Positions 53,977-61,315 of a stretch of DNA of 64,000 nucleotides are shown here, piece by piece (position 1 is the first letter of the stretch; every line of letters begins with the position of its first letter). The notes under the pieces were generated by a model. It did not search any database. It was given only the letters and a program-made list of their open reading frames with translations, and was not told the origin of the DNA. The position numbers and the translations under genes are program-made. This DNA comes from an uncultured Cytophagia bacterium (GTDB taxonomy: Bacteria; Zhuqueibacterota; Zhuqueibacteria; Thermofontimicrobiales; Thermofontimicrobiaceae), in NCBI GenBank assembly GCA_964605145.1, contig CAZSBG010000009.1, forward strand, positions 28,727 to 92,726, given 5' to 3'.

Positions 53977-54492
53977 TTATTTATCATAAACCAATTTCTG
54001 TATCATGCTTTTCAATACTTGAAATTCTTCTTTGTTAAATCCCACAGACTGGTAAGCGATCTTGCCTGTTTTGTCGATCAAGTAATTTCTGGGAATGTAG
54101 GCTTTGGCGAACAATCCGTACACGTCGCGTTTTGGATCCGGCGCCATTAAAAACGTGAATCCTTTTTCGTTGTTAAATTTCACCAGTTCCTCGCTGCTGT
54201 GCTCGCGTCCCACAGCGATGACCACGAAGTTTTCTCCCTTGAATTTCTCCCAGATTTCTTTTTGCAGATGCGGCATTTCACTCATACACGGCCCGCACCA
54301 GGTGGCGAAGAAGTTAATCAGTACGGTTTTGCCTTTCATTTTCTGGATGTCGAATTCCTCGCCGGTAATCGTCGTCAGCTTGAATGAAGGAACGGCCTGG
54401 CCAACCTCTGTGAGCGTGGATTCTTTTTCGTCCTGGGCAAGAACAATGAGCGGCAGCAGCAAAAGTAGAATTGAGAAAAAAATAGTGCGGTT
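53977..54492 (-). CDS. TlpA-like thiol:disulfide oxidoreductase (thioredoxin fold), secreted
   Basis: The active site is WCGPC. The likely start is MNRTIFFSILLLLLPLIVLA, a signal peptide at ~54492. Confidence 0.8.
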   Translation of the reverse strand, partial: NRTIFFSILLLLLPLIVLAQDEKESTLTEVGQAVPSFKLTTITGEEFDIQKMKGKTVLINFFATWCGPCMSEMPHLQKEIWEKFKGENFVVIAVGREHSSEELVKFNNEKGFTFLMAPDPKRDVYGLFAKAYIPRNYLIDKTGKIAYQSVGFNKEEFQVLKSMIQKLVYDK

Positions 54493-54759
54493 CATGAAAT
54501 CCTCCAGATTTTCTATTTCCAAATTGATTTCCGTTGGATGAAATTTAAACAAATGTCGAATAAAAAACAAGCACGAAATGTGCGGGATAAAAGTCAGAGT
54601 TTTTTAACGATGGATTGTACAAAAAGTTATTATATTTTTGTTACGAATATTGTCTGTTTCAGCAAAATTAATTACATTGGAAAATTGAAATAACAAAGTT
54701 TGATTTAACTAAAATTATACGTTTTTCACCCTGTCAAAATTTAAGGATTTGAGCTGCAT

Positions 54760-55770
54760 TTGACCTACGCTATCGAAACAGTCGGATTGACCAAAGAATA
54801 TCCGCAACATCGGGGCTATTCGGAATTGCTCCTGCATCCGCTTCGAAAGAAATCGTTCACGGCGCTGAAAAATATCTCGTTGCAGCTTCGTCACGGTGAA
54901 CTGTTCTGCCTGTTAGGATCCAACGGCGCCGGAAAAACCACACTCATCAAAATTTTGTGCTCGCTGGTTTTGCCCACATCCGGCAAGGCATTTGTGGACG
55001 GATTCGATGTGGTAAAGCAGGGGGGAGAAGTCCGAAAAAAAATAGGTTACGTGGTCAGCGATGAACGCAGCTTTTACTGGCGCTTGACAGGCCGGCAAAA
55101 TCTTCAGTTTTTTGCCACGCTGCACAAAATGCCATCTTCCATCATTCCCGAAAAAATAAATCGATTGCTGGATATGACTGGTTTGCAGCCGGATGCCGAC
55201 AAGTTATTCAAAGATTATTCGTCGGGCATGAAGCAAAAGCTTGCCATTGCGCGGGGATTGCTCAATGACCCTGAAATGGTGTTCATGGATGAACCAACCC
55301 GCAGCCTCGACCCGTACACATCGCACATTTTGAGGAATTTCATCAAAGAAAAAGTTGTGGGGGAAAACGGAAAAACTGTTTTCCTGGCCACGCACAATCT
55401 GCAGGAAGCGGAAACGCTGAGCGATAAAGTCGCCATCATTCACAAAGGTCAATTTCGCGCGTTTGGAACCATGCAGGAAATTCTTCAAAATGGAAAGACG
55501 CGTCCGGTGTTCGCAGTTTCGCTCGCCCGACCAACGCCGGAAGTCCTGTCCCGCTTGAAAGAATCCTTGTTTTCAATTGAATTTATCAGGGATAATGTTG
55601 AATTGCCGCTGAATGGCACTCCTTTTGAATTTGAGATTTCTGGTTCAGAAAATGAAATTCCGAAAATGATTCGAATGATTGTTGAAGCCGGCGGGGATGT
55701 ATTGAGTTGCGCCCCAAAAAAAATATCGCTCGAGCATGTTTTCGCCAATTTCATTCAGGAGGGAAAATGA
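54760..55770 (+). CDS. ABC transporter ATP-binding protein (ABC-2 exporter type)
   Basis: Walker A is GSNGAGKTT, the signature is YSSGMKQKLAIARGL and Walker B is VFMDEPT. A C-terminal extension follows. The apparent start codon is TTG. Confidence 0.85.
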   Translation: MTYAIETVGLTKEYPQHRGYSELLLHPLRKKSFTALKNISLQLRHGELFCLLGSNGAGKTTLIKILCSLVLPTSGKAFVDGFDVVKQGGEVRKKIGYVVSDERSFYWRLTGRQNLQFFATLHKMPSSIIPEKINRLLDMTGLQPDADKLFKDYSSGMKQKLAIARGLLNDPEMVFMDEPTRSLDPYTSHILRNFIKEKVVGENGKTVFLATHNLQEAETLSDKVAIIHKGQFRAFGTMQEILQNGKTRPVFAVSLARPTPEVLSRLKESLFSIEFIRDNVELPLNGTPFEFEISGSENEIPKMIRMIVEAGGDVLSCAPKKISLEHVFANFIQEGK

Positions 55771-56582
55771 GAGCGAGCCTTGCCATTCCCTGGGCGTTTT
55801 TAAAACGCGACCTCCGCAACGAATCCAGTTACAAACTGCATTTTTTCATGCAAATGGCCGGGATTCTTTTTTCCACGGTGACATTTTATTTCTTGTCAAA
55901 ATTAATCGGCACAAAATTCAATGCGTATTTGAAGCCATACGGCGGCGATTACTTTTCGTTCGTTCTCATTGGAATTGCCTTTTCCCATTATTTGCAGGTG
56001 TCGTTGCAGGGATTCAGCAAGGTCATCCGCGAAGCCCAGGTGATGGGCATCCTCGAGCCGCTGTTGGTCACCCAAACGCGAGTCGAAACCATCATCCTGT
56101 CTTCGACGCTGTACAATTTTCTACTCACGTCGCTCCGCGTGATGGTTTTTCTGCTGCTGGGCGCCCTCGTTTTTTCGATGGACATCAGCAATGGAAATTT
56201 CCCCGGCGCGCTGTTGATTTTGCTGCTGACCATCCCATCGTTCAGTTGTCTCGGCATCATTTCAGCAAGCTTCATTATGGTGATGAAAAAAGGCGATCCG
56301 CTGTCCTGGCTGTTCAGCAGCGTTTCGTGGTTGATCGGGGGCGTTTACTATCCAGTTGCGATTCTTCCGCAATGGATGCAGCATTTGGCGTATCTGCTGC
56401 CCATTCGCCATTCCCTGGAAGGCATGCGCATGGCATTGCTGCAGGGATATTCGCTGAAACAACTGCTGCCCAGCATTATCCCGCTGCTGGTTTTTTCGGC
56501 GATCATGCTGCCGCTCAGCTTGTTAATTTTCCGTTTCGCGGTGAGAAAAGCAAAAATAGATGGGACGCTTACTCAATATTGA
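55767..56582 (+). CDS. ABC-2 type transporter permease
   Basis: The product has six TM helices. Its ATG overlaps the upstream stop codon (ATGA) by four nucleotides, which suggests translational coupling. The alternative-frame ORF 55736-56662 was rejected. Confidence 0.75.
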   Translation: MRASLAIPWAFLKRDLRNESSYKLHFFMQMAGILFSTVTFYFLSKLIGTKFNAYLKPYGGDYFSFVLIGIAFSHYLQVSLQGFSKVIREAQVMGILEPLLVTQTRVETIILSSTLYNFLLTSLRVMVFLLLGALVFSMDISNGNFPGALLILLLTIPSFSCLGIISASFIMVMKKGDPLSWLFSSVSWLIGGVYYPVAILPQWMQHLAYLLPIRHSLEGMRMALLQGYSLKQLLPSIIPLLVFSAIMLPLSLLIFRFAVRKAKIDGTLTQY

Positions 56583-57864
56583 AATCAGTGGCAGGGTTTA
56601 TGGGGCATGGGAAACCGGCTTTGTTCAACATCAATAATGATTTTTTTCTGCAAAGCAAATAAAAATAAAATACGACCGGAATGATGCGGTTAAAGAAAGC
56701 AATCACGGGATGAAGTACACTCAAAAGATAGACTTTTTTCGAATTTTGGGAGAGTCGGTATTTATTCCGTAATTTCTCATGAGAAGGGAACAGGCTGACG
56801 AAAATATGCCTCAATTTATTTCCGAAATTTTCAGCAAGTGAAAGACGGCGTGAGAACGAGAATACCTGCTGGTCAACTTTCTGGGCCATGTATAATCGGT
56901 CGAAATAATCCGGGGAAAACTCGGATTTCAATGCAATAAGTATTTCTGAGGGGATTATGTCTGGTATTACCTCATTTGCGAAAAACAGTCCTGCATAAAC
57001 AAAGTGCGACAATTTGTATTTGTGACAGTTAACCAATAACTGCTCCCAATTCAATCTTTCTTTAAACCGAAAAATTACAGCCGAAATATCGTTAATTTCC
57101 CGATAGGTGATGTTCGTGTTTAATTTATAGAAATGATGCACACACAAATGAAGAAGTGTATCTTCAGGGGAAAGGAAAAGAGCATCGATCTTGTCAATTT
57201 TTCCTTGTTTTACTCGGTCCCATATTTCATCAATTTCAATTTTGATAATTTGATTGTTAGTCCGTAACGTCCAGTGCAGTTCAATGGCCGGTCTCCTTTT
57301 TCGGGACATTGGAGCAGAATGGTGGGAAACTGGTGTGCCGTCTTTTCTCATGGCAGTTTTTGATGAAGATGAATAGTTATGCTCATGTAGAATTCTTCGC
57401 GCCCGATTCATATCATCTTTTTTCACCAACAAGTCAAGGTCGCTGGTCTTACGCACGCCCCAATCCTTGTAAACAGTATCCAGCAGCATTGGCCCTTTAA
57501 GAACGACTGTTTCAATTCCCTCTTTTCGAAATAATTCCAGCACAAATTTTAGTTCATCAAAGATAACCACATTCCAGCCGTATGCAGCAATGTATTTTTC
57601 TTTCAATAACGCGAAATGATCGGATGGAATCAAATCCTGTTTTCCGAAACATTTCAGGTTTGAATAAATCAATGAAGCGACCTGCTGATTTATGGCAAAC
57701 TCGACCAGAAAATCACAGCTTGTCTCGCTGGTTATCAGCGATTCAATTTTCTGAAAAATGGTTTCATCCGGAATGACTGTCGACAGAAGCCTGACCAGTT
57801 TTTTCTCTGTTGCAAATTTATTTCTCACAGTGAGCCTCGAAATGCAAGAAGGTTGGAAAAACAT
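56569..57864 (-). CDS. Uncharacterised nucleotidyltransferase family protein (NTP_transf_5/PF14907-like)
   Basis: The minimal nucleotidyltransferase fold motif is LKGPMLLDTVYKDWGVRKTSDLDLLV. The tracked ORF extends 5' into the upstream peptidase gene, so the start is uncertain. Shown here from the internal Met, MFFQ. Confidence 0.55.
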   Translation of the reverse strand: MFFQPSCISRLTVRNKFATEKKLVRLLSTVIPDETIFQKIESLITSETSCDFLVEFAINQQVASLIYSNLKCFGKQDLIPSDHFALLKEKYIAAYGWNVVIFDELKFVLELFRKEGIETVVLKGPMLLDTVYKDWGVRKTSDLDLLVKKDDMNRARRILHEHNYSSSSKTAMRKDGTPVSHHSAPMSRKRRPAIELHWTLRTNNQIIKIEIDEIWDRVKQGKIDKIDALFLSPEDTLLHLCVHHFYKLNTNITYREINDISAVIFRFKERLNWEQLLVNCHKYKLSHFVYAGLFFANEVIPDIIPSEILIALKSEFSPDYFDRLYMAQKVDQQVFSFSRRLSLAENFGNKLRHIFVSLFPSHEKLRNKYRLSQNSKKVYLLSVLHPVIAFFNRIIPVVFYFYLLCRKKSLLMLNKAGFPCPINPATDFNIE

Positions 57865-58364
57865 CGGTTGGTGTAATGAAACAATCGGCGAAACACACCT
57901 CGGAAAAAGCGGTTTTGCCGGGTGAAAAAATAGTTGCTCAGAATTCGCCATTGCATCTGTAGCAGCTTCCCGTACAAGAAATGAATTATGCGATAGCGCC
58001 GGCGTGTAAGATCAATATCTTGATTTTTGGCTTTTATTTCAACGACTTTTCCAAGCACAAGAGACTCCGGAAAAGGATTGTCGAAACGTCCCACAGAATC
58101 ACCCTTTGTGACGATGTAATTAAACATGCCTCTCTGAAATCGGGTTACAAATCGATGTGTGTAATATTTTGTTTCACAATCGATGAGAATAATGTCCCCC
58201 GGAATCAGTTCGGACGCTTTTGCAGCTTCAACAATAATATTATCCCCGGCGTGAATGACCGGGGACATGCTGTTAGTGATAACCTGAGATTTGATTGTTT
58301 GGCAAATAGCCAACTGCTCACGAAGAATTTCAGTTATCACACTTGCCAATTTTTGATCATTCAT
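57825..58364 (-). CDS. S26/S24-like serine peptidase (signal-peptidase-I/LexA fold)
   Basis: The Ser nucleophile box is NSMSPVIHAGDNIIV, and VTKGDSVGRFDNPFPES resembles box D with a candidate general-base Lys. The C-terminal tail is Arg/Phe-rich. Confidence 0.5.
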   Translation of the reverse strand: MNDQKLASVITEILREQLAICQTIKSQVITNSMSPVIHAGDNIIVEAAKASELIPGDIILIDCETKYYTHRFVTRFQRGMFNYIVTKGDSVGRFDNPFPESLVLGKVVEIKAKNQDIDLTRRRYRIIHFLYGKLLQMQWRILSNYFFTRQNRFFRGVFRRLFHYTNRCFSNLLAFRGSL

Positions 58365-58386: not shown

Positions 58387-58536
58387 TCTATGTATGAGAT
58401 GGGGTACAAAGTAATGAAACAGATGTACAAGAACCAGCCAATGATTCAATAGTATTTGAATGACTGATGTTTGGTTTTATATATCGTTTCTTAATTGATT
58501 TTCTTTTCTTTTTCTCAGAAAAATTTTTTTCTGTCA
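58387..58536 (-). CDS. Candidate RiPP precursor peptide (49 aa; not in the ORF track because it is under 60 aa)
   Basis: Manual translation gives MTEKNFSEKKKRKSIKKRYIKPNISHSNTIESLAGSCTSVSLLCTPSHT. GGGAGA lies 10 nt upstream of the ATG. The start is 50 nt downstream of the radical SAM gene stop, and the stop is 23 nt upstream of the peptidase gene start. The leader is basic; the tail is rich in Cys, Ser and Thr and ends in Thr. Confidence 0.45.
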
Positions 58537-58590
58537 TGATACCAGATCTCCCTAATTTTATGATTTAGCGCAATGAAACAAACCTTAGAA

Positions 58591-59681
58591 TTAGTATATT
58601 TTTTCAATTGGATAATTGATAATGGTTTTTTTTGTTACCGATTTCCTGATACTCGCATGCCTGCATGATTCTTTTGCCGGCTCATAAAGGCTTCCATGCT
58701 CCATTAAAGCGAGCCCCGGGCAGGGACTACAGTAATCCATGTCGTCACAGGTTGCACAATGCTTTAGCTTTGTTAACGTTAATTCACGAATATGTTTTAA
58801 AACCAATGAATTCGACCAAATTTCACGAAATGGTTGTTGGCGTAAGTTACCTGCTTTTTGTTGTATTCGGACACAAGGATAAACATCTCCAAATGGCGAA
58901 ATTAATGTGACTATTTTGCCAGAACTACATATTGTTTCATTTAGGTCGCGATGAAAAAAATCCAAATTTGAAAAATTTTGCTTATAAAATTTAATAATGT
59001 CTTGTGTCTCTAACCGATATTTCAGCGGTAGTTTATCATTGTTCGCTTTTGGATTAATCACTGGATCCGGAAGAAATTTTGCACCAACAAAATCTGCATA
59101 CTCCTGAATGGCTCTCAATTCATTTATATTTTGTTTCATGACAATCGTTTTTATATGCACATTCATTTTGAATTTTATCAGATGATGTATTGCAGACATT
59201 GTTCGCGCAAAAGAACCGGGGATTTGTGTAATACCATCATGTATGTCTTCGGACATGGCATAGATGCTGATTTCAACAAACAGTGGATAGAACTCTGCAA
59301 TTTTCTTCGCGTAACCTTCTGTGATCAGCGTTCCATTTGTGAATAACCGCAATGCAAATCCTTTAGATTTCGCGTGCGAAATAATGTCAAAATAGTCTTT
59401 CCGTAGCATGGCCTCGCCGCCGGAAATTGCAAGGTACAATGTCCCTGCCTCTGCCAATTGATCCAAAATGTCTTTTACTTCATCTGTTGTCAATTCCTGT
59501 CTGTCCGGTTCGTTCACCGCGTAACAATGAACGCATTTCAAATTGCAGCGGTAAGTCAAATCCAGGTGCGCGTAAAGCGGTATATTTTTAGCTGCGGCTC
59601 TGCGCTCGAGGTCACCATAGGATGTGCTGTGTTTTTTGTTTGTCGGAGCTGATTGCATCAATAAATTTCCCCATTCAATCA
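58591..59681 (-). CDS. Radical SAM/SPASM-domain peptide maturase
   Basis: The CX3CX2C motif is YRCNLKCVHCY. The C-terminal Cys-rich SPASM region reads CVRIQQ...CATCDDMDYCSPCPG. The tracked N-terminal 31-50 aa read through a repeat element, so the start is placed at MIEW or MQSAP (~59657-59714, uncertain). Confidence 0.85.
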
Positions 59682-59709: not shown

Positions 59710-59797
59710 TGTCATTGCGAGCGAAACGGGGTGAAGCGAAGCAATCCCCTGCCCACAAGCGTGAGATTGCTTCGGCCAAAAATGCCTCGCAATGACA
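59710..59797. repeat. MITE-like palindromic element, copy 6 (TGTCATTGCGAG subtype)
   Basis: It runs from TGTCATTGCGAGCGAA through an internal GAAGCAATC...GATTGCTTC hairpin to GCCTCGCAATGACA. It overlaps the annotated 5' end of the radical SAM ORF. Confidence 0.55.
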
Positions 59798-59875
59798 ATT
59801 ATTTGCAATGTTATTTAGTACTACATAGTCAGATTAAAAAATGTCTCGAAAAACAAAGCAGTATTTCATAATCAT

Positions 59876-59954
59876 TGTCATTCCCGCATGCTTTTAGCGG
59901 GAATCTCCTCGTGTTTTAGAATGAGATTCCTGCAAAAAACGTGCAGGAATGACA
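59876..59954. repeat. MITE-like palindromic element, copy 7 (short TGTCATTCCCGC subtype), inside an 18-bp outer inverted repeat
   Basis: TGTCATTCCCGC is followed by hairpins ATTCCCGC...GCGGGAAT, GGAATCTC...GAGATTCC and CCTGC...GCAGG, then AATGACA. The outer inverted repeat is TACTACATAGTCAGATTA at 59818 and TAATCTGACTAAGTAGTA at 59964. Confidence 0.55.
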
Positions 59955-60036
59955 GAAAAATGGTAATCTGACTAAGTAGTATTAGTATATTACAAATTAT
60001 TTTCTGATCATTTTTGGCAGAATATTTAAATACTCT

Positions 60037-60132
60037 ATATAGAACACGGATGACGCTGATGAAACAGATTTACGCAGATAAAAATCCGTGAAGATCAGCG
60101 TCATCCGTGTCATCTGCGTTCTATTTTTTATT
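60037..60132. promoter_or_regulatory. Large perfect hairpin (17-bp stem, 33-nt loop) with a 3' T-tract on the plus strand, between the PqqD and radical SAM genes
   Basis: ACACGGATGACGCTGAT-loop-ATCAGCGTCATCCGTGT is extended by ATAGAAC and GTTCTAT, then TTTTTTATT. It has terminator-like architecture in the plus orientation and lies inside a minus-strand operon. Confidence 0.4.
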
Positions 60133-60183: not shown

Positions 60184-60468
60184 TCACATTTTGCTTACAA
60201 ATTCAATCATGTTTTTCTCAACCAATTCTTCGATAAAAATTGTCGTGTCCGCTTCCGCGGTCGCCAATTCCACATCAAACTCATTTTGAATTTCAGCGGC
60301 GATCTCTCGCACTGTTCGAGAACCATCGGTCAATTCCCAAACGCGGGTGCCAACTTCATTCAATGTGTTAATTGATCCTTCCATGGGTTGCACGATTACG
60401 GCCTCGCCATCCACAACGCGGGACGCGGTTTGGGTGCTTTTGTTTGGGTAATTGTCAAGAAAGCTCAT
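60184..60468 (-). CDS. PqqD-family RiPP recognition element (RRE) protein
   Basis: The PqqD-like pattern is DGEAVIV...LNEVGTRVWELTDGSRTVREIAAEIQNEFDV...FIEELVEKNMI. The likely start is MSFLDNY at ~60468, which has a GGAGG ribosome-binding site; the tracked ORF extends further 5'. Confidence 0.8.
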   Translation of the reverse strand: MSFLDNYPNKSTQTASRVVDGEAVIVQPMEGSINTLNEVGTRVWELTDGSRTVREIAAEIQNEFDVELATAEADTTIFIEELVEKNMIEFVSKM

Positions 60469-61315
60469 GAATTGTCCTCCAGAATGAATTGTCTTTTGTG
60501 AAATGTAGTTCATAACAGGGAATGCGGTTGGCCAAACTTGTACAGAATTCCAGGGCAGTTTCACTGCCAATCGAGTGATTGCTCAAAGGCCGAACGCTGT
60601 TTAATAATTCAAAAACAGCGTTTACAGGTTTCATTTTTAGCGCATAGGTGCGCGTATCCTGAATAAGCCGGAAACACGCTCTTATACGCGCAGTGGTGTT
60701 GGTAAGCTGGAAGCCATTTTTTTCTGAATTGAACGGGCAGGCTGAAACGTTCGCAGAACCATTTTTCTGCTGCAGCACAAGCAAATCGTCCCCTAACACA
60801 AATCGCGGTTTTGAGAAATTCGTCACTGTTGTTTTTCCCACGCCGGACGGCCCGAAAAAAATGTATCCTTCTTCGTTTTCAATGATACCGGCTCCATGAA
60901 ATACGGTGGATTTGTTCTGCAGAGCAACGACAGCAAAGGCAACCCGTAAAAAATGCTCCAGCCAGGATAACGGATTAGCTTCATTGATCGCCATCTCAGC
61001 GATACCTGTTTCCAAATTCACATATCCAATAAAATAGTTAGACCGGACAAAGCAGGTGTTCCCTTCGTATCGCTGATCCACATACAAATTATCGTTGCCT
61101 TCAGAATCGGGAAAGTGAATTCCCTCTGTCAGATGAATGTCAATCTTCAGAAAACAGCCTGTTTCTTCGGTGGTAAATTTGATATATTGGTCCCCCAACG
61201 CATCCATCAACGCTTTATCTGTAGAATTCAATTGAACCACAAAATCAGCGATTTTTAATTTCAGAGAATAGGGTTCGTGTGCGAATTTATAGGAGTCGAA
61301 TGGAAATGTGTTCAT
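60455..61315 (-). CDS. HprK-related P-loop kinase (HPr kinase C-terminal domain-like)
   Basis: The sequence HGAGIIENEEGYIFFGPSGVGKTTV resembles the HprK C-terminal Walker A region. The length is 286 aa. The stop codon overlaps the PqqD gene start. Confidence 0.65.
   Translation of the reverse strand: MNTFPFDSYKFAHEPYSLKLKIADFVVQLNSTDKALMDALGDQYIKFTTEETGCFLKIDIHLTEGIHFPDSEGNDNLYVDQRYEGNTCFVRSNYFIGYVNLETGIAEMAINEANPLSWLEHFLRVAFAVVALQNKSTVFHGAGIIENEEGYIFFGPSGVGKTTVTNFSKPRFVLGDDLLVLQQKNGSANVSACPFNSEKNGFQLTNTTARIRACFRLIQDTRTYALKMKPVNAVFELLNSVRPLSNHSIGSETALEFCTSLANRIPCYELHFTKDNSFWRTIHELS

Follow-up and report, generated by a model that had tools for sequence, protein, structure and literature searches.

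A conserved 49-residue peptide gene beside radical SAM, PqqD and HprK-related genes as the likely precursor of a modified peptide in an uncultured Zhuqueibacterota bacterium

Does the short open reading frame (ORF) wedged between a radical S-adenosylmethionine (rSAM)/SPASM gene and a signal peptidase-like gene in an uncultured bacterium of the Zhuqueibacterota encode the substrate of the enzymes that surround it? The stretch of DNA analyzed here, referred to as the window, covers 64,000 nucleotides (nt) of contig CAZSBG010000009.1 (assembly GCA_964605145.1). An initial annotation made from the sequence alone proposed a 49-amino acid (aa) minus-strand ORF as a candidate precursor peptide, with a cysteine-containing tail as the rSAM substrate and a C-terminal hydroxyl residue as a kinase target. 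The analysis shows the ORF to be a conserved coding gene from a family that is genetically tied to ScmC, PqqD, and rSAM/SPASM genes. It is very likely a genuine precursor gene, and with good, if slightly lower, confidence we regard as the best explanation of the whole locus that this frame is translated into the precursor (A-peptide) of a peptide synthesized by ribosomes and modified post-translationally (RiPP) and that the surrounding operon makes the peptide.

The translation of the ORF is exactly MTEKNFSEKKKRKSIKKRYIKPNISHSNTIESLAGSCTSVSLLCTPSHT, for which a leader comprising approximately residues 1–34 and a core comprising approximately residues 35–49 (GSCTSVSLLCTPSHT) are predicted. Its elements, all on the minus strand, are the following:

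58388..58537, minus strand: precursor peptide gene, 49 codons plus stop, with an ATG start, from translation
58547..58552, minus strand: Shine-Dalgarno sequence GGGAGA, 9 nt ahead of the ATG, kept in the related loci L005 and L002
58466..58483, minus strand: leader motif Y19 to I24 (Y-I-K-P-N-I), of the form Y-x-x-P-x-[ILV], predicted binding site of PqqD as the RiPP recognition element (RRE)
58406..58429, minus strand: core cysteines C37 to C44, both invariant, predicted site of rSAM/SPASM action
58391..58393, minus strand: T49, the hydroxyl residue at the C-terminus, which the ScmC/HprK-like kinase is predicted to target

The initial annotation was right about the existence and translation of the ORF, the GGGAGA, and the 23 nt that separate the ORF from the ATG of the S26-like peptidase gene (58364). 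It had, however, placed the ORF one base off (58387-58536), the Shine-Dalgarno sequence at 10 nt, and the rSAM stop codon (58591-58593) at 50 nt, where 9 and 53 nt were measured; these numeric slips do not matter. The peptide gene is recorded in Logan gene calls only; NCBI's version of the 96-kb contig calls the rSAM and peptidase proteins on either side of it and omits the peptide, which fits its reported absence from the ORF track. As calculated from base composition, a 50-codon open frame at 43% GC is a ~5% event per frame, so that the ORF by itself proves little; it is conservation, and not ORF length, that lifts the peptide gene far above chance.

Synteny and profiles were needed to reveal this conservation; a word search with the single peptide against 5.8 billion proteins returned only the peptide itself. 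The same slot holds a homologous small ORF in L005, where the rSAM protein is 65% identical (MKNVKQNKNNNKRYLKKKYEKPKINHSTRIETLAETCTNNVGCVPSNPLT, followed by a 179-aa gene at the S26-like position), and in L002/L003, where it is 61% identical (MKKENKTCSNSRKKIYQKPRITHTSVIETLAGSCIQVGGCVPSST). Same-slot homologous ORFs in syntenic loci measure 45–50 aa, and a GGGAGA or AGGAGA stands at an equal distance in the window, L005, and L002. Within a conserved block of 21 codons, the three peptides show ~6, 6, and 12 differences at codon positions 1, 2, and 3, respectively, and 5–7 codons per pair are synonymously different. Such wobble-biased differences and synonymous changes constitute a protein-coding signature, and on two points where the candidate could have failed, a small ORF at the syntenic position and codon periodicity, it held.

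A broken copy of the precursor gene was observed at 7247-7400 of L006, a paralogous cluster in the metagenome-assembled genome (MAG) that contains L002 (GCA_964498785.1). It carries an in-frame TAA at codon 4 and a frameshift at the first conserved Cys codon, in whose place stands a TGA, and a +1 shift brings back an end that reads ...SCNDTSECTPNYS or ...LLGSCNDTSECTPNYS up to the stop codon; the copy is either a pseudogene or the result of an assembly indel.

Beyond the syntenic loci, small ORFs were searched iteratively, using a profile that started from the three peptides, in 165 loci with homologues of the rSAM protein, 160 of which were fetched beyond the first ones. Family peptides, 52 in total, were found in 48 of the 165 loci, from many phyla, and 25 of the 52 begin at most 150 nt past the rSAM stop codon. 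Their presence goes together with that of a ScmC/HprK-like gene (44 of 48 loci with the peptide versus 30 of 117 without; Fisher p 1e-15), an S26-like gene (32/48 versus 15/117; p 2e-11), and an NTP_transf_5 gene (20/48 versus 16/117; p 2e-4). Homologous small ORFs therefore do recur beside rSAM, PqqD, and HprK-like (ScmC) genes, as the initial annotation had suggested looking for, and this recurrence, alongside the same-slot homologues, supports the claim of a precursor peptide. When the family profile was run against the whole window, its single match was the 49-aa ORF (E 1.2e-12). An iterative search with PqqD drifted (301 matches in 165 loci), probably via PqqD-rSAM fusions, and its output was left aside.

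Searched with the family profile, 5.8e9 proteins yielded 117 matches, of which every named one is labeled “hypothetical” and none has a Pfam domain; HMMER, run exhaustively over 1.84e9 cluster representatives, returned 909 matches at E <= 1e-3. The family is spread over Acidobacteriota, Nitrospirota, Omnitrophota, Gammaproteobacteria, Myxococcota, and other phyla, in at least 900 sequence clusters, and ten diverse members, when scanned, matched neither NCBIfam nor Pfam models. The literature searched, in which RiPP papers from subscription journals were thinly covered, described neither a system combining rSAM, PqqD, and HprK-like proteins nor the TIGRFAM/Pfam accessions concerned, and offered lasso analogies only. 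The peptide family is widespread yet uncatalogued, and very likely one of RiPP precursors.

Four loci (L086, L098, L062, and L085) each hold two tandem, slightly differing precursor copies; tandem duplicate copies are common among RiPP precursors. In two longer proteins, P0240 (714 aa) and P0352 (1426 aa), the last ~55 residues form a complete family peptide that ends in ...GPISS, and both are probably gene-call read-throughs rather than true fusions.

Family members share a fixed layout, with a basic N-terminus, the Y-x-x-P-x-[ILV] motif, a first Cys, a variable loop, a second Cys, and a short tail that ends in Ser or Thr. In the alignments A2 and A3, P22 is invariant and Y19, like the C-terminal Ser/Thr, is at least 90% conserved, and the distance from this Tyr to the first Cys is 18 residues in 217 of 255 members and 20 in another 34 (18 or 20 in 251 of 255). 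The window peptide has the distance of 18, with P22, C37, and C44 at the invariant columns of the family. Generic traits of RiPP precursors are also present, namely a conserved, motif-bearing leader in front of a core that varies in length and sequence, on a short ORF co-directional with genes for modifying enzymes.

The last residue is Ser or Thr in 48 of 52, 116 of 116, and 138 of 139 peptides of three member sets, against a background of 14.5% in small ORFs of the same loci (binomial p 8e-36). This near-invariant end and the co-occurrence with HprK-like genes support the earlier idea of a C-terminal hydroxyl as the kinase target that would be phosphorylated.

Small ORFs with a weaker likeness to the leader were observed in L018, L020, and L022, which derive from Methanophagales and Methanogaster MAGs of anaerobic methanotrophic archaea (ANME) and contain ScmC-like and rSAM genes. 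These ORFs have a Y-x-K-P-E-I-R-S-E-E-I leader and different cores, with ends of the form L-C-P-P-C-[T/K/P].

On the minus strand, the genes are transcribed in the order ScmC/HprK-related, PqqD, rSAM/SPASM, 49-aa ORF, S26-like, and NTP_transf_5, and Pfam/NCBIfam matches bear out the neighbors that had been named, including a weak HprK-related match and an ABC-2 exporter:

60455..61315, minus strand: ScmC/HprK-related P-loop protein, 286 aa, with GPSGVGKTT; weak HprK_rel_B/A matches; predicted peptide kinase
~60184..60468, minus strand: stand-alone PqqD-family protein (RRE), Pfam PqqD E 2.5e-17; start approximate, overlapping the end of the upstream gene
58591..59658, minus strand: rSAM/SPASM maturase, 355 aa, starting MQSAPTNKK; Pfam Radical_SAM E 3.8e-22, SPASM E 2.9e-9; from gene call
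57825..58364, minus strand: S24/S26 (signal peptidase I, archaeal/ER type)-like protein, 179 aa; TIGR02228 E 6e-11, under the cut-off; predicted leader peptidase
56569..57828, minus strand: NTP_transf_5 nucleotidyltransferase, 419 aa; PF14907 E 9e-49; from gene call
54760..56582, plus strand: convergent ABC exporter, consisting of an ATPase (54760-55770) and an ABC-2 permease (55767-56582); from family matches and gene calls

The start of the NTP_transf_5 gene, whose product keeps a G...DxD motif, overlaps the stop of the S26-like gene by 4 nt, and the same pair of ABC ATPase and permease genes was found in L002/L003. The upstream side of the ScmC-like gene holds a divergent gene on the plus strand, for which reason a precursor upstream of ScmC was rejected. 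A thioredoxin/AhpC-TSA-family protein with a CGPC motif (53977-54570, minus strand), also called in L001, adjoins the ABC exporter genes and might possibly handle a Cys-containing peptide.

The spacer between the PqqD and rSAM genes (59711-60110) is packed with nested palindromes that look like insertions of the miniature inverted-repeat transposable element (MITE) or repetitive extragenic palindromic (REP) type:

59876-59907 / 59923-59954: 32-nt palindromic arms, inside 21-nt arms resembling terminal inverted repeats (59816-59836 / 59964-59984)
60044-60060 / 60094-60110: perfect 17-nt pair in the PqqD-rSAM spacer
59711-59796: GTCATTGCGAG...CTCGCAATGAC element in the PqqD-rSAM spacer

These palindromes explain both a false N-terminal extension in a 405-aa version of the rSAM ORF and the sub-threshold matches to microRNA hairpins that were all that Rfam returned over 54-64 kb. 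None of these matches overlaps the 49-aa ORF, and an explanation by an RNA gene was rejected. A 38-aa ORF at 59997-60113, considered as an alternative precursor, was likewise rejected, as it has no family match and sits within a perfect palindrome.

How might the operon act on the peptide? Judged by their conserved motifs, the rSAM, S26-like, nucleotidyltransferase, and ScmC enzymes look active, and a pathway can be proposed in which each individual chemical step, taken singly, is at best evenly balanced. It would begin with the stand-alone PqqD, the top NCBIfam match of which is the lasso PqqD chaperone, under its cut-off. Lasso leaders carry a conserved YxxPxL at positions −17 to −12, and B1 (PqqD-type) proteins recognize leader residues (PMC10368454). 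The rSAM/SPASM protein of the window lacks an N-terminal RRE domain, and in its homologues P0035, P0037, P0041, and P0047-P0049 (~455–474 aa) a PqqD domain is fused, which gives Rosetta-stone support for a PqqD-rSAM partnership. The lasso form of the motif, the RRE-less rSAM, and these fusions suggest, by analogy, that PqqD most likely binds the Y-I-K-P-N-I motif at Y19-I24 and hands the core to the rSAM/SPASM enzyme.

This enzyme has invariant cysteines C38/C42/C45 (CX3CX2C) and a full set of seven in the SPASM region, of the auxiliary Fe-S type (C244, C262, C301, C304, C310, C313, and C332), and its best and third-best solved relatives, SkfB (8e-25) and CteB (3e-14), both form thioethers. 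It would modify the core at or with C37 and C44. Because the core contains two invariant Cys, Cys-to-carbon thioether cross-links of the sacti- or ranthipeptide type are the leading guess for the outcome, a tentative one that we hold at a little under even.

The HprK-related ScmC protein would phosphorylate a hydroxyl, and NTP_transf_5 may then extend the phosphate, as with phosphoglycosylated lasso peptides. In lasso systems, it is on the C-terminal Ser of the linear precursor that HprK homologues place a phosphate, which a nucleotidyltransferase then glycosylates (PMC8498205), and one HprK-type lasso kinase requires an RRE (PMC10368454). As the C-terminal Ser/Thr is near-invariant, Thr49 is the most likely target here, an assignment that we consider evenly poised. 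The ScmC family has the consensus HAxGV..G.LF.G.SG.GKST...VL.DD, a P-loop followed by D-D. Of the 44 members in alignment A4, 33 match HprK_rel_B, 32 ScmC, 25 HprK_rel_A, and 3 HPr(Ser) kinase, and a 286-aa protein at the same operon position in L002/L003 matches PF27840 ScmC. Matches of the family profile in the PDB are remote (PEPCK, 1.3e-5; HprK 1jb1, 1.5e-3 over 58 residues), and a single-sequence PDB search with the ScmC-like protein gave P-loop noise only.

The S26-like protein is a divergent relative of the TIGR02228 family (42.4 against a cut-off of 51.85), in which the motifs S32-M-S-P35 (SMxP), H70-R71 (HR), and G88-D89 (GD) are kept across 47 homologues; on reading its sequence, an N-terminal membrane anchor is not evident. 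Acting as a soluble Ser/His peptidase, it might cut off the leader, plausibly past a conserved E-x-x-A, which would leave GSCTSVSLLCTPSHT. Signal peptidase I follows a −3/−1 rule, which the E-x-x-A ahead of the first Cys fits; cleavage after A34 by this enzyme is speculative. The ABC-2 transporter would export the finished product.

Several observations weigh against this interpretation of the ORF and its operon. The closest rSAM relative (L004, 69% identical) yielded neither the peptide nor the S26-like gene in the 817 nt downstream (1784-2600) that its 2.6-kb contig contains, possibly through rearrangement, insertion, or chimeric assembly, and L007, L008, and L009 yielded no detectable peptide. 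The C-x7-C loop of the window peptide is shorter than the family norm of 10–15, and divergent leader-bearing ORFs beside ScmC genes end otherwise than in Ser/Thr (...IYA in L011, ...SYV in L023, and ...CPPC[K/P] in the ANME loci), so that the C-terminal rule covers the core family and not every ScmC system. With regard to the enzymes, PqqE (6e-20), which forms a C–C bond, is among the nearest solved rSAM relatives besides the thioether-formers. The ScmC-like protein of the window matches HprK-related models weakly (22 bits versus a cut-off of 200), and its single-sequence AlphaFold2 model was unusable (pLDDT 35). The lasso kinase BsfK, moreover, acts on Ser3 and not on the C-terminus (PMC10368454). 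Finally, all of the pathway chemistry is what we infer.

The alternative that survives best, improbable though it is, regards the ORF as encoding the precursor for a redox cofactor derived from a peptide, like pyrroloquinoline quinone (PQQ) or mycofactocin, instead of an exported product. MftC gives the only full-length, single-stretch NCBIfam alignment of the rSAM protein among the top matches (E 8e-42, under its cut-off), PqqE ranks second among the solved relatives, and both the free-standing PqqD and a C-terminal residue that would be modified are reminiscent of MftA and PqqA. However, the cores are hypervariable in length and composition, unlike those of cofactor precursors, the operon genes include a leader-type peptidase and an ABC-2 exporter with no dehydrogenases among them, and all scores for PQQ and mycofactocin models remain under their cut-offs.

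Slightly less probable still is a conserved small operon protein that is not a substrate, such as an immunity, regulatory, or scaffold protein, with the true precursor encoded elsewhere. The 49-aa ORF is the only family-type ORF in the window, and the operon offers no other candidate, given the divergent gene upstream of ScmC and the palindromes that fill the PqqD-rSAM spacer. A conserved leader with an RRE-type motif in front of a hypervariable Cys tail is a hallmark of RiPP precursors, and the tandem duplicates in several loci point the same way, even if some loci encode the family peptide kilobases away from the rSAM gene or on the opposite strand.

That the ORF encodes a lasso-peptide precursor is very improbable. 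The kinase and nucleotidyltransferase pair known from lasso clusters, the PqqD with its lasso chaperone match, and the YxxPxL-type leader would all agree with it, but none of the seven operon proteins matches a lasso cyclase (asparagine-synthetase-like) or a B2 transglutaminase-type peptidase, and an rSAM/SPASM enzyme stands in the place of the cyclase. The core GSCTSVSLLCTPSHT lacks the Asp or Glu that a lasso core carries at positions 7–9 for its macrolactam, with none past residue 31. Without a cyclase or B2 match among the operon proteins and an acidic residue in the core, this is not a lasso system. An explanation by a chance open frame within non-coding DNA that separates the rSAM gene from the peptidase gene, although compatible with the ~5% per-frame expectation, the lone self-match of the word search, and the uncalled gene in the NCBI copy, is effectively refuted by the conservation of same-slot homologues with a kept Shine-Dalgarno sequence and wobble-biased changes and by the hundreds of profile relatives with an invariant architecture.

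If the ORF is a RiPP precursor as we propose, the system may, tentatively and with somewhat less than even confidence, represent an uncharacterized and uncatalogued hybrid RiPP class, in which an rSAM/SPASM enzyme cross-links a two-Cys core via a YxxPx[ILV] leader and PqqD, an HprK-like kinase, often with NTP_transf_5, builds a phospho- or phosphoglycosyl/nucleotidyl group on a C-terminal Ser/Thr, and an S26 signal-peptidase-like enzyme serves as the leader peptidase. Candidate precursors can now be offered for the orphan cassettes of HprK-related/ScmC, PqqD, and rSAM/SPASM genes, for which the libraries searched contain no precursor model or characterized product. Hundreds of metagenomic clusters whose peptides are uncalled or labeled “hypothetical” now become open to re-annotation by means of the family profile, which combines a basic N-terminus, YxxPx[ILV], a Cys at +18 or +20, another Cys, and a Ser/Thr at the C-terminus. 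Should the kinase step be true, C-terminal phospho-tailoring of the lasso type would reach a radical SAM peptide class.

Among known systems, the sacti- and ranthipeptides (SkfA/SkfB, SCIFF/CteB, subtilosin AlbA) share with the locus a full-SPASM rSAM enzyme encoded beside a short precursor whose leader is conserved and whose core contains Cys, and SkfB and CteB are, by sequence, the first and third best solved relatives of the rSAM protein. Here, in contrast, the RRE is a separate PqqD and not an N-terminal domain of the rSAM enzyme, the operon adds an HprK-like kinase, NTP_transf_5, and an S26-type peptidase, and the precursor combines a leader of lasso-like form, YxxPx[ILV], with a Ser/Thr that is obligatory at the C-terminus. 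The rSAM protein of the window falls outside the curated sactipeptide maturase families, with 135 bits against a cut-off of 625 for StsB, 92 against 850 for AlbA, and 76 against 300 for SkfB.

Phosphorylated and phosphoglycosylated lasso peptides (paeninodin PadeK, pseudomycoidin PsmK/PsmN, BsfK/BsfN) have in common with it an HPr-kinase homologue, a nucleotidyltransferase, a stand-alone PqqD-type RRE, and a YxxPxL leader, and their kinase acts on the linear precursor at its C-terminal Ser hydroxyl (PMC8498205, PMC10368454). The operon described here differs in that it has no cyclase or B2 match, its core carries no acidic ring-closer, and the rSAM/SPASM enzyme is class-defining.

The kit of HprK-related/ScmC, PqqD, and rSAM/SPASM proteins is shared with the SynChlorMet (SCM) cassette, GeoRSP, and HprK-related A/B systems (ScmC-ScmF, TIGR04302/04303, TIGR04352/04355), which are defined by NCBIfam/TIGRFAM models only and for which the NCBIfam/Pfam libraries searched hold no precursor model; the SCM precursor is reportedly unidentified. 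Proteins of the window match the SCM, GeoRSP, and HprK-related models weakly, and members of their families do so more clearly. Scores of the window proteins lie below the cut-offs of TIGR04248-04251 and GeoRSP (ScmC 15 against 125, ScmD 37 against 100, ScmE 106 against 400, ScmF 81 against 400, and GeoRSP rSAM 103 against 400), and SynChlorMet has two rSAM genes where the window operon has one.

With PQQ (PqqA/D/E) and mycofactocin (MftA/B/C), finally, the locus shares a stand-alone PqqD-type chaperone, which here would hand a short peptide to an RRE-less rSAM/SPASM enzyme, and, as a prediction, modification near the C-terminus, whereas the precursors of those systems are highly conserved and yield cofactors, and hypervariable cores, an exporter, and a peptidase are found here. 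The system is most likely sacti- or ranthipeptide-like, with a stand-alone chaperone in the style of PQQ and with leader recognition and C-terminal tailoring in the style of lasso peptides.

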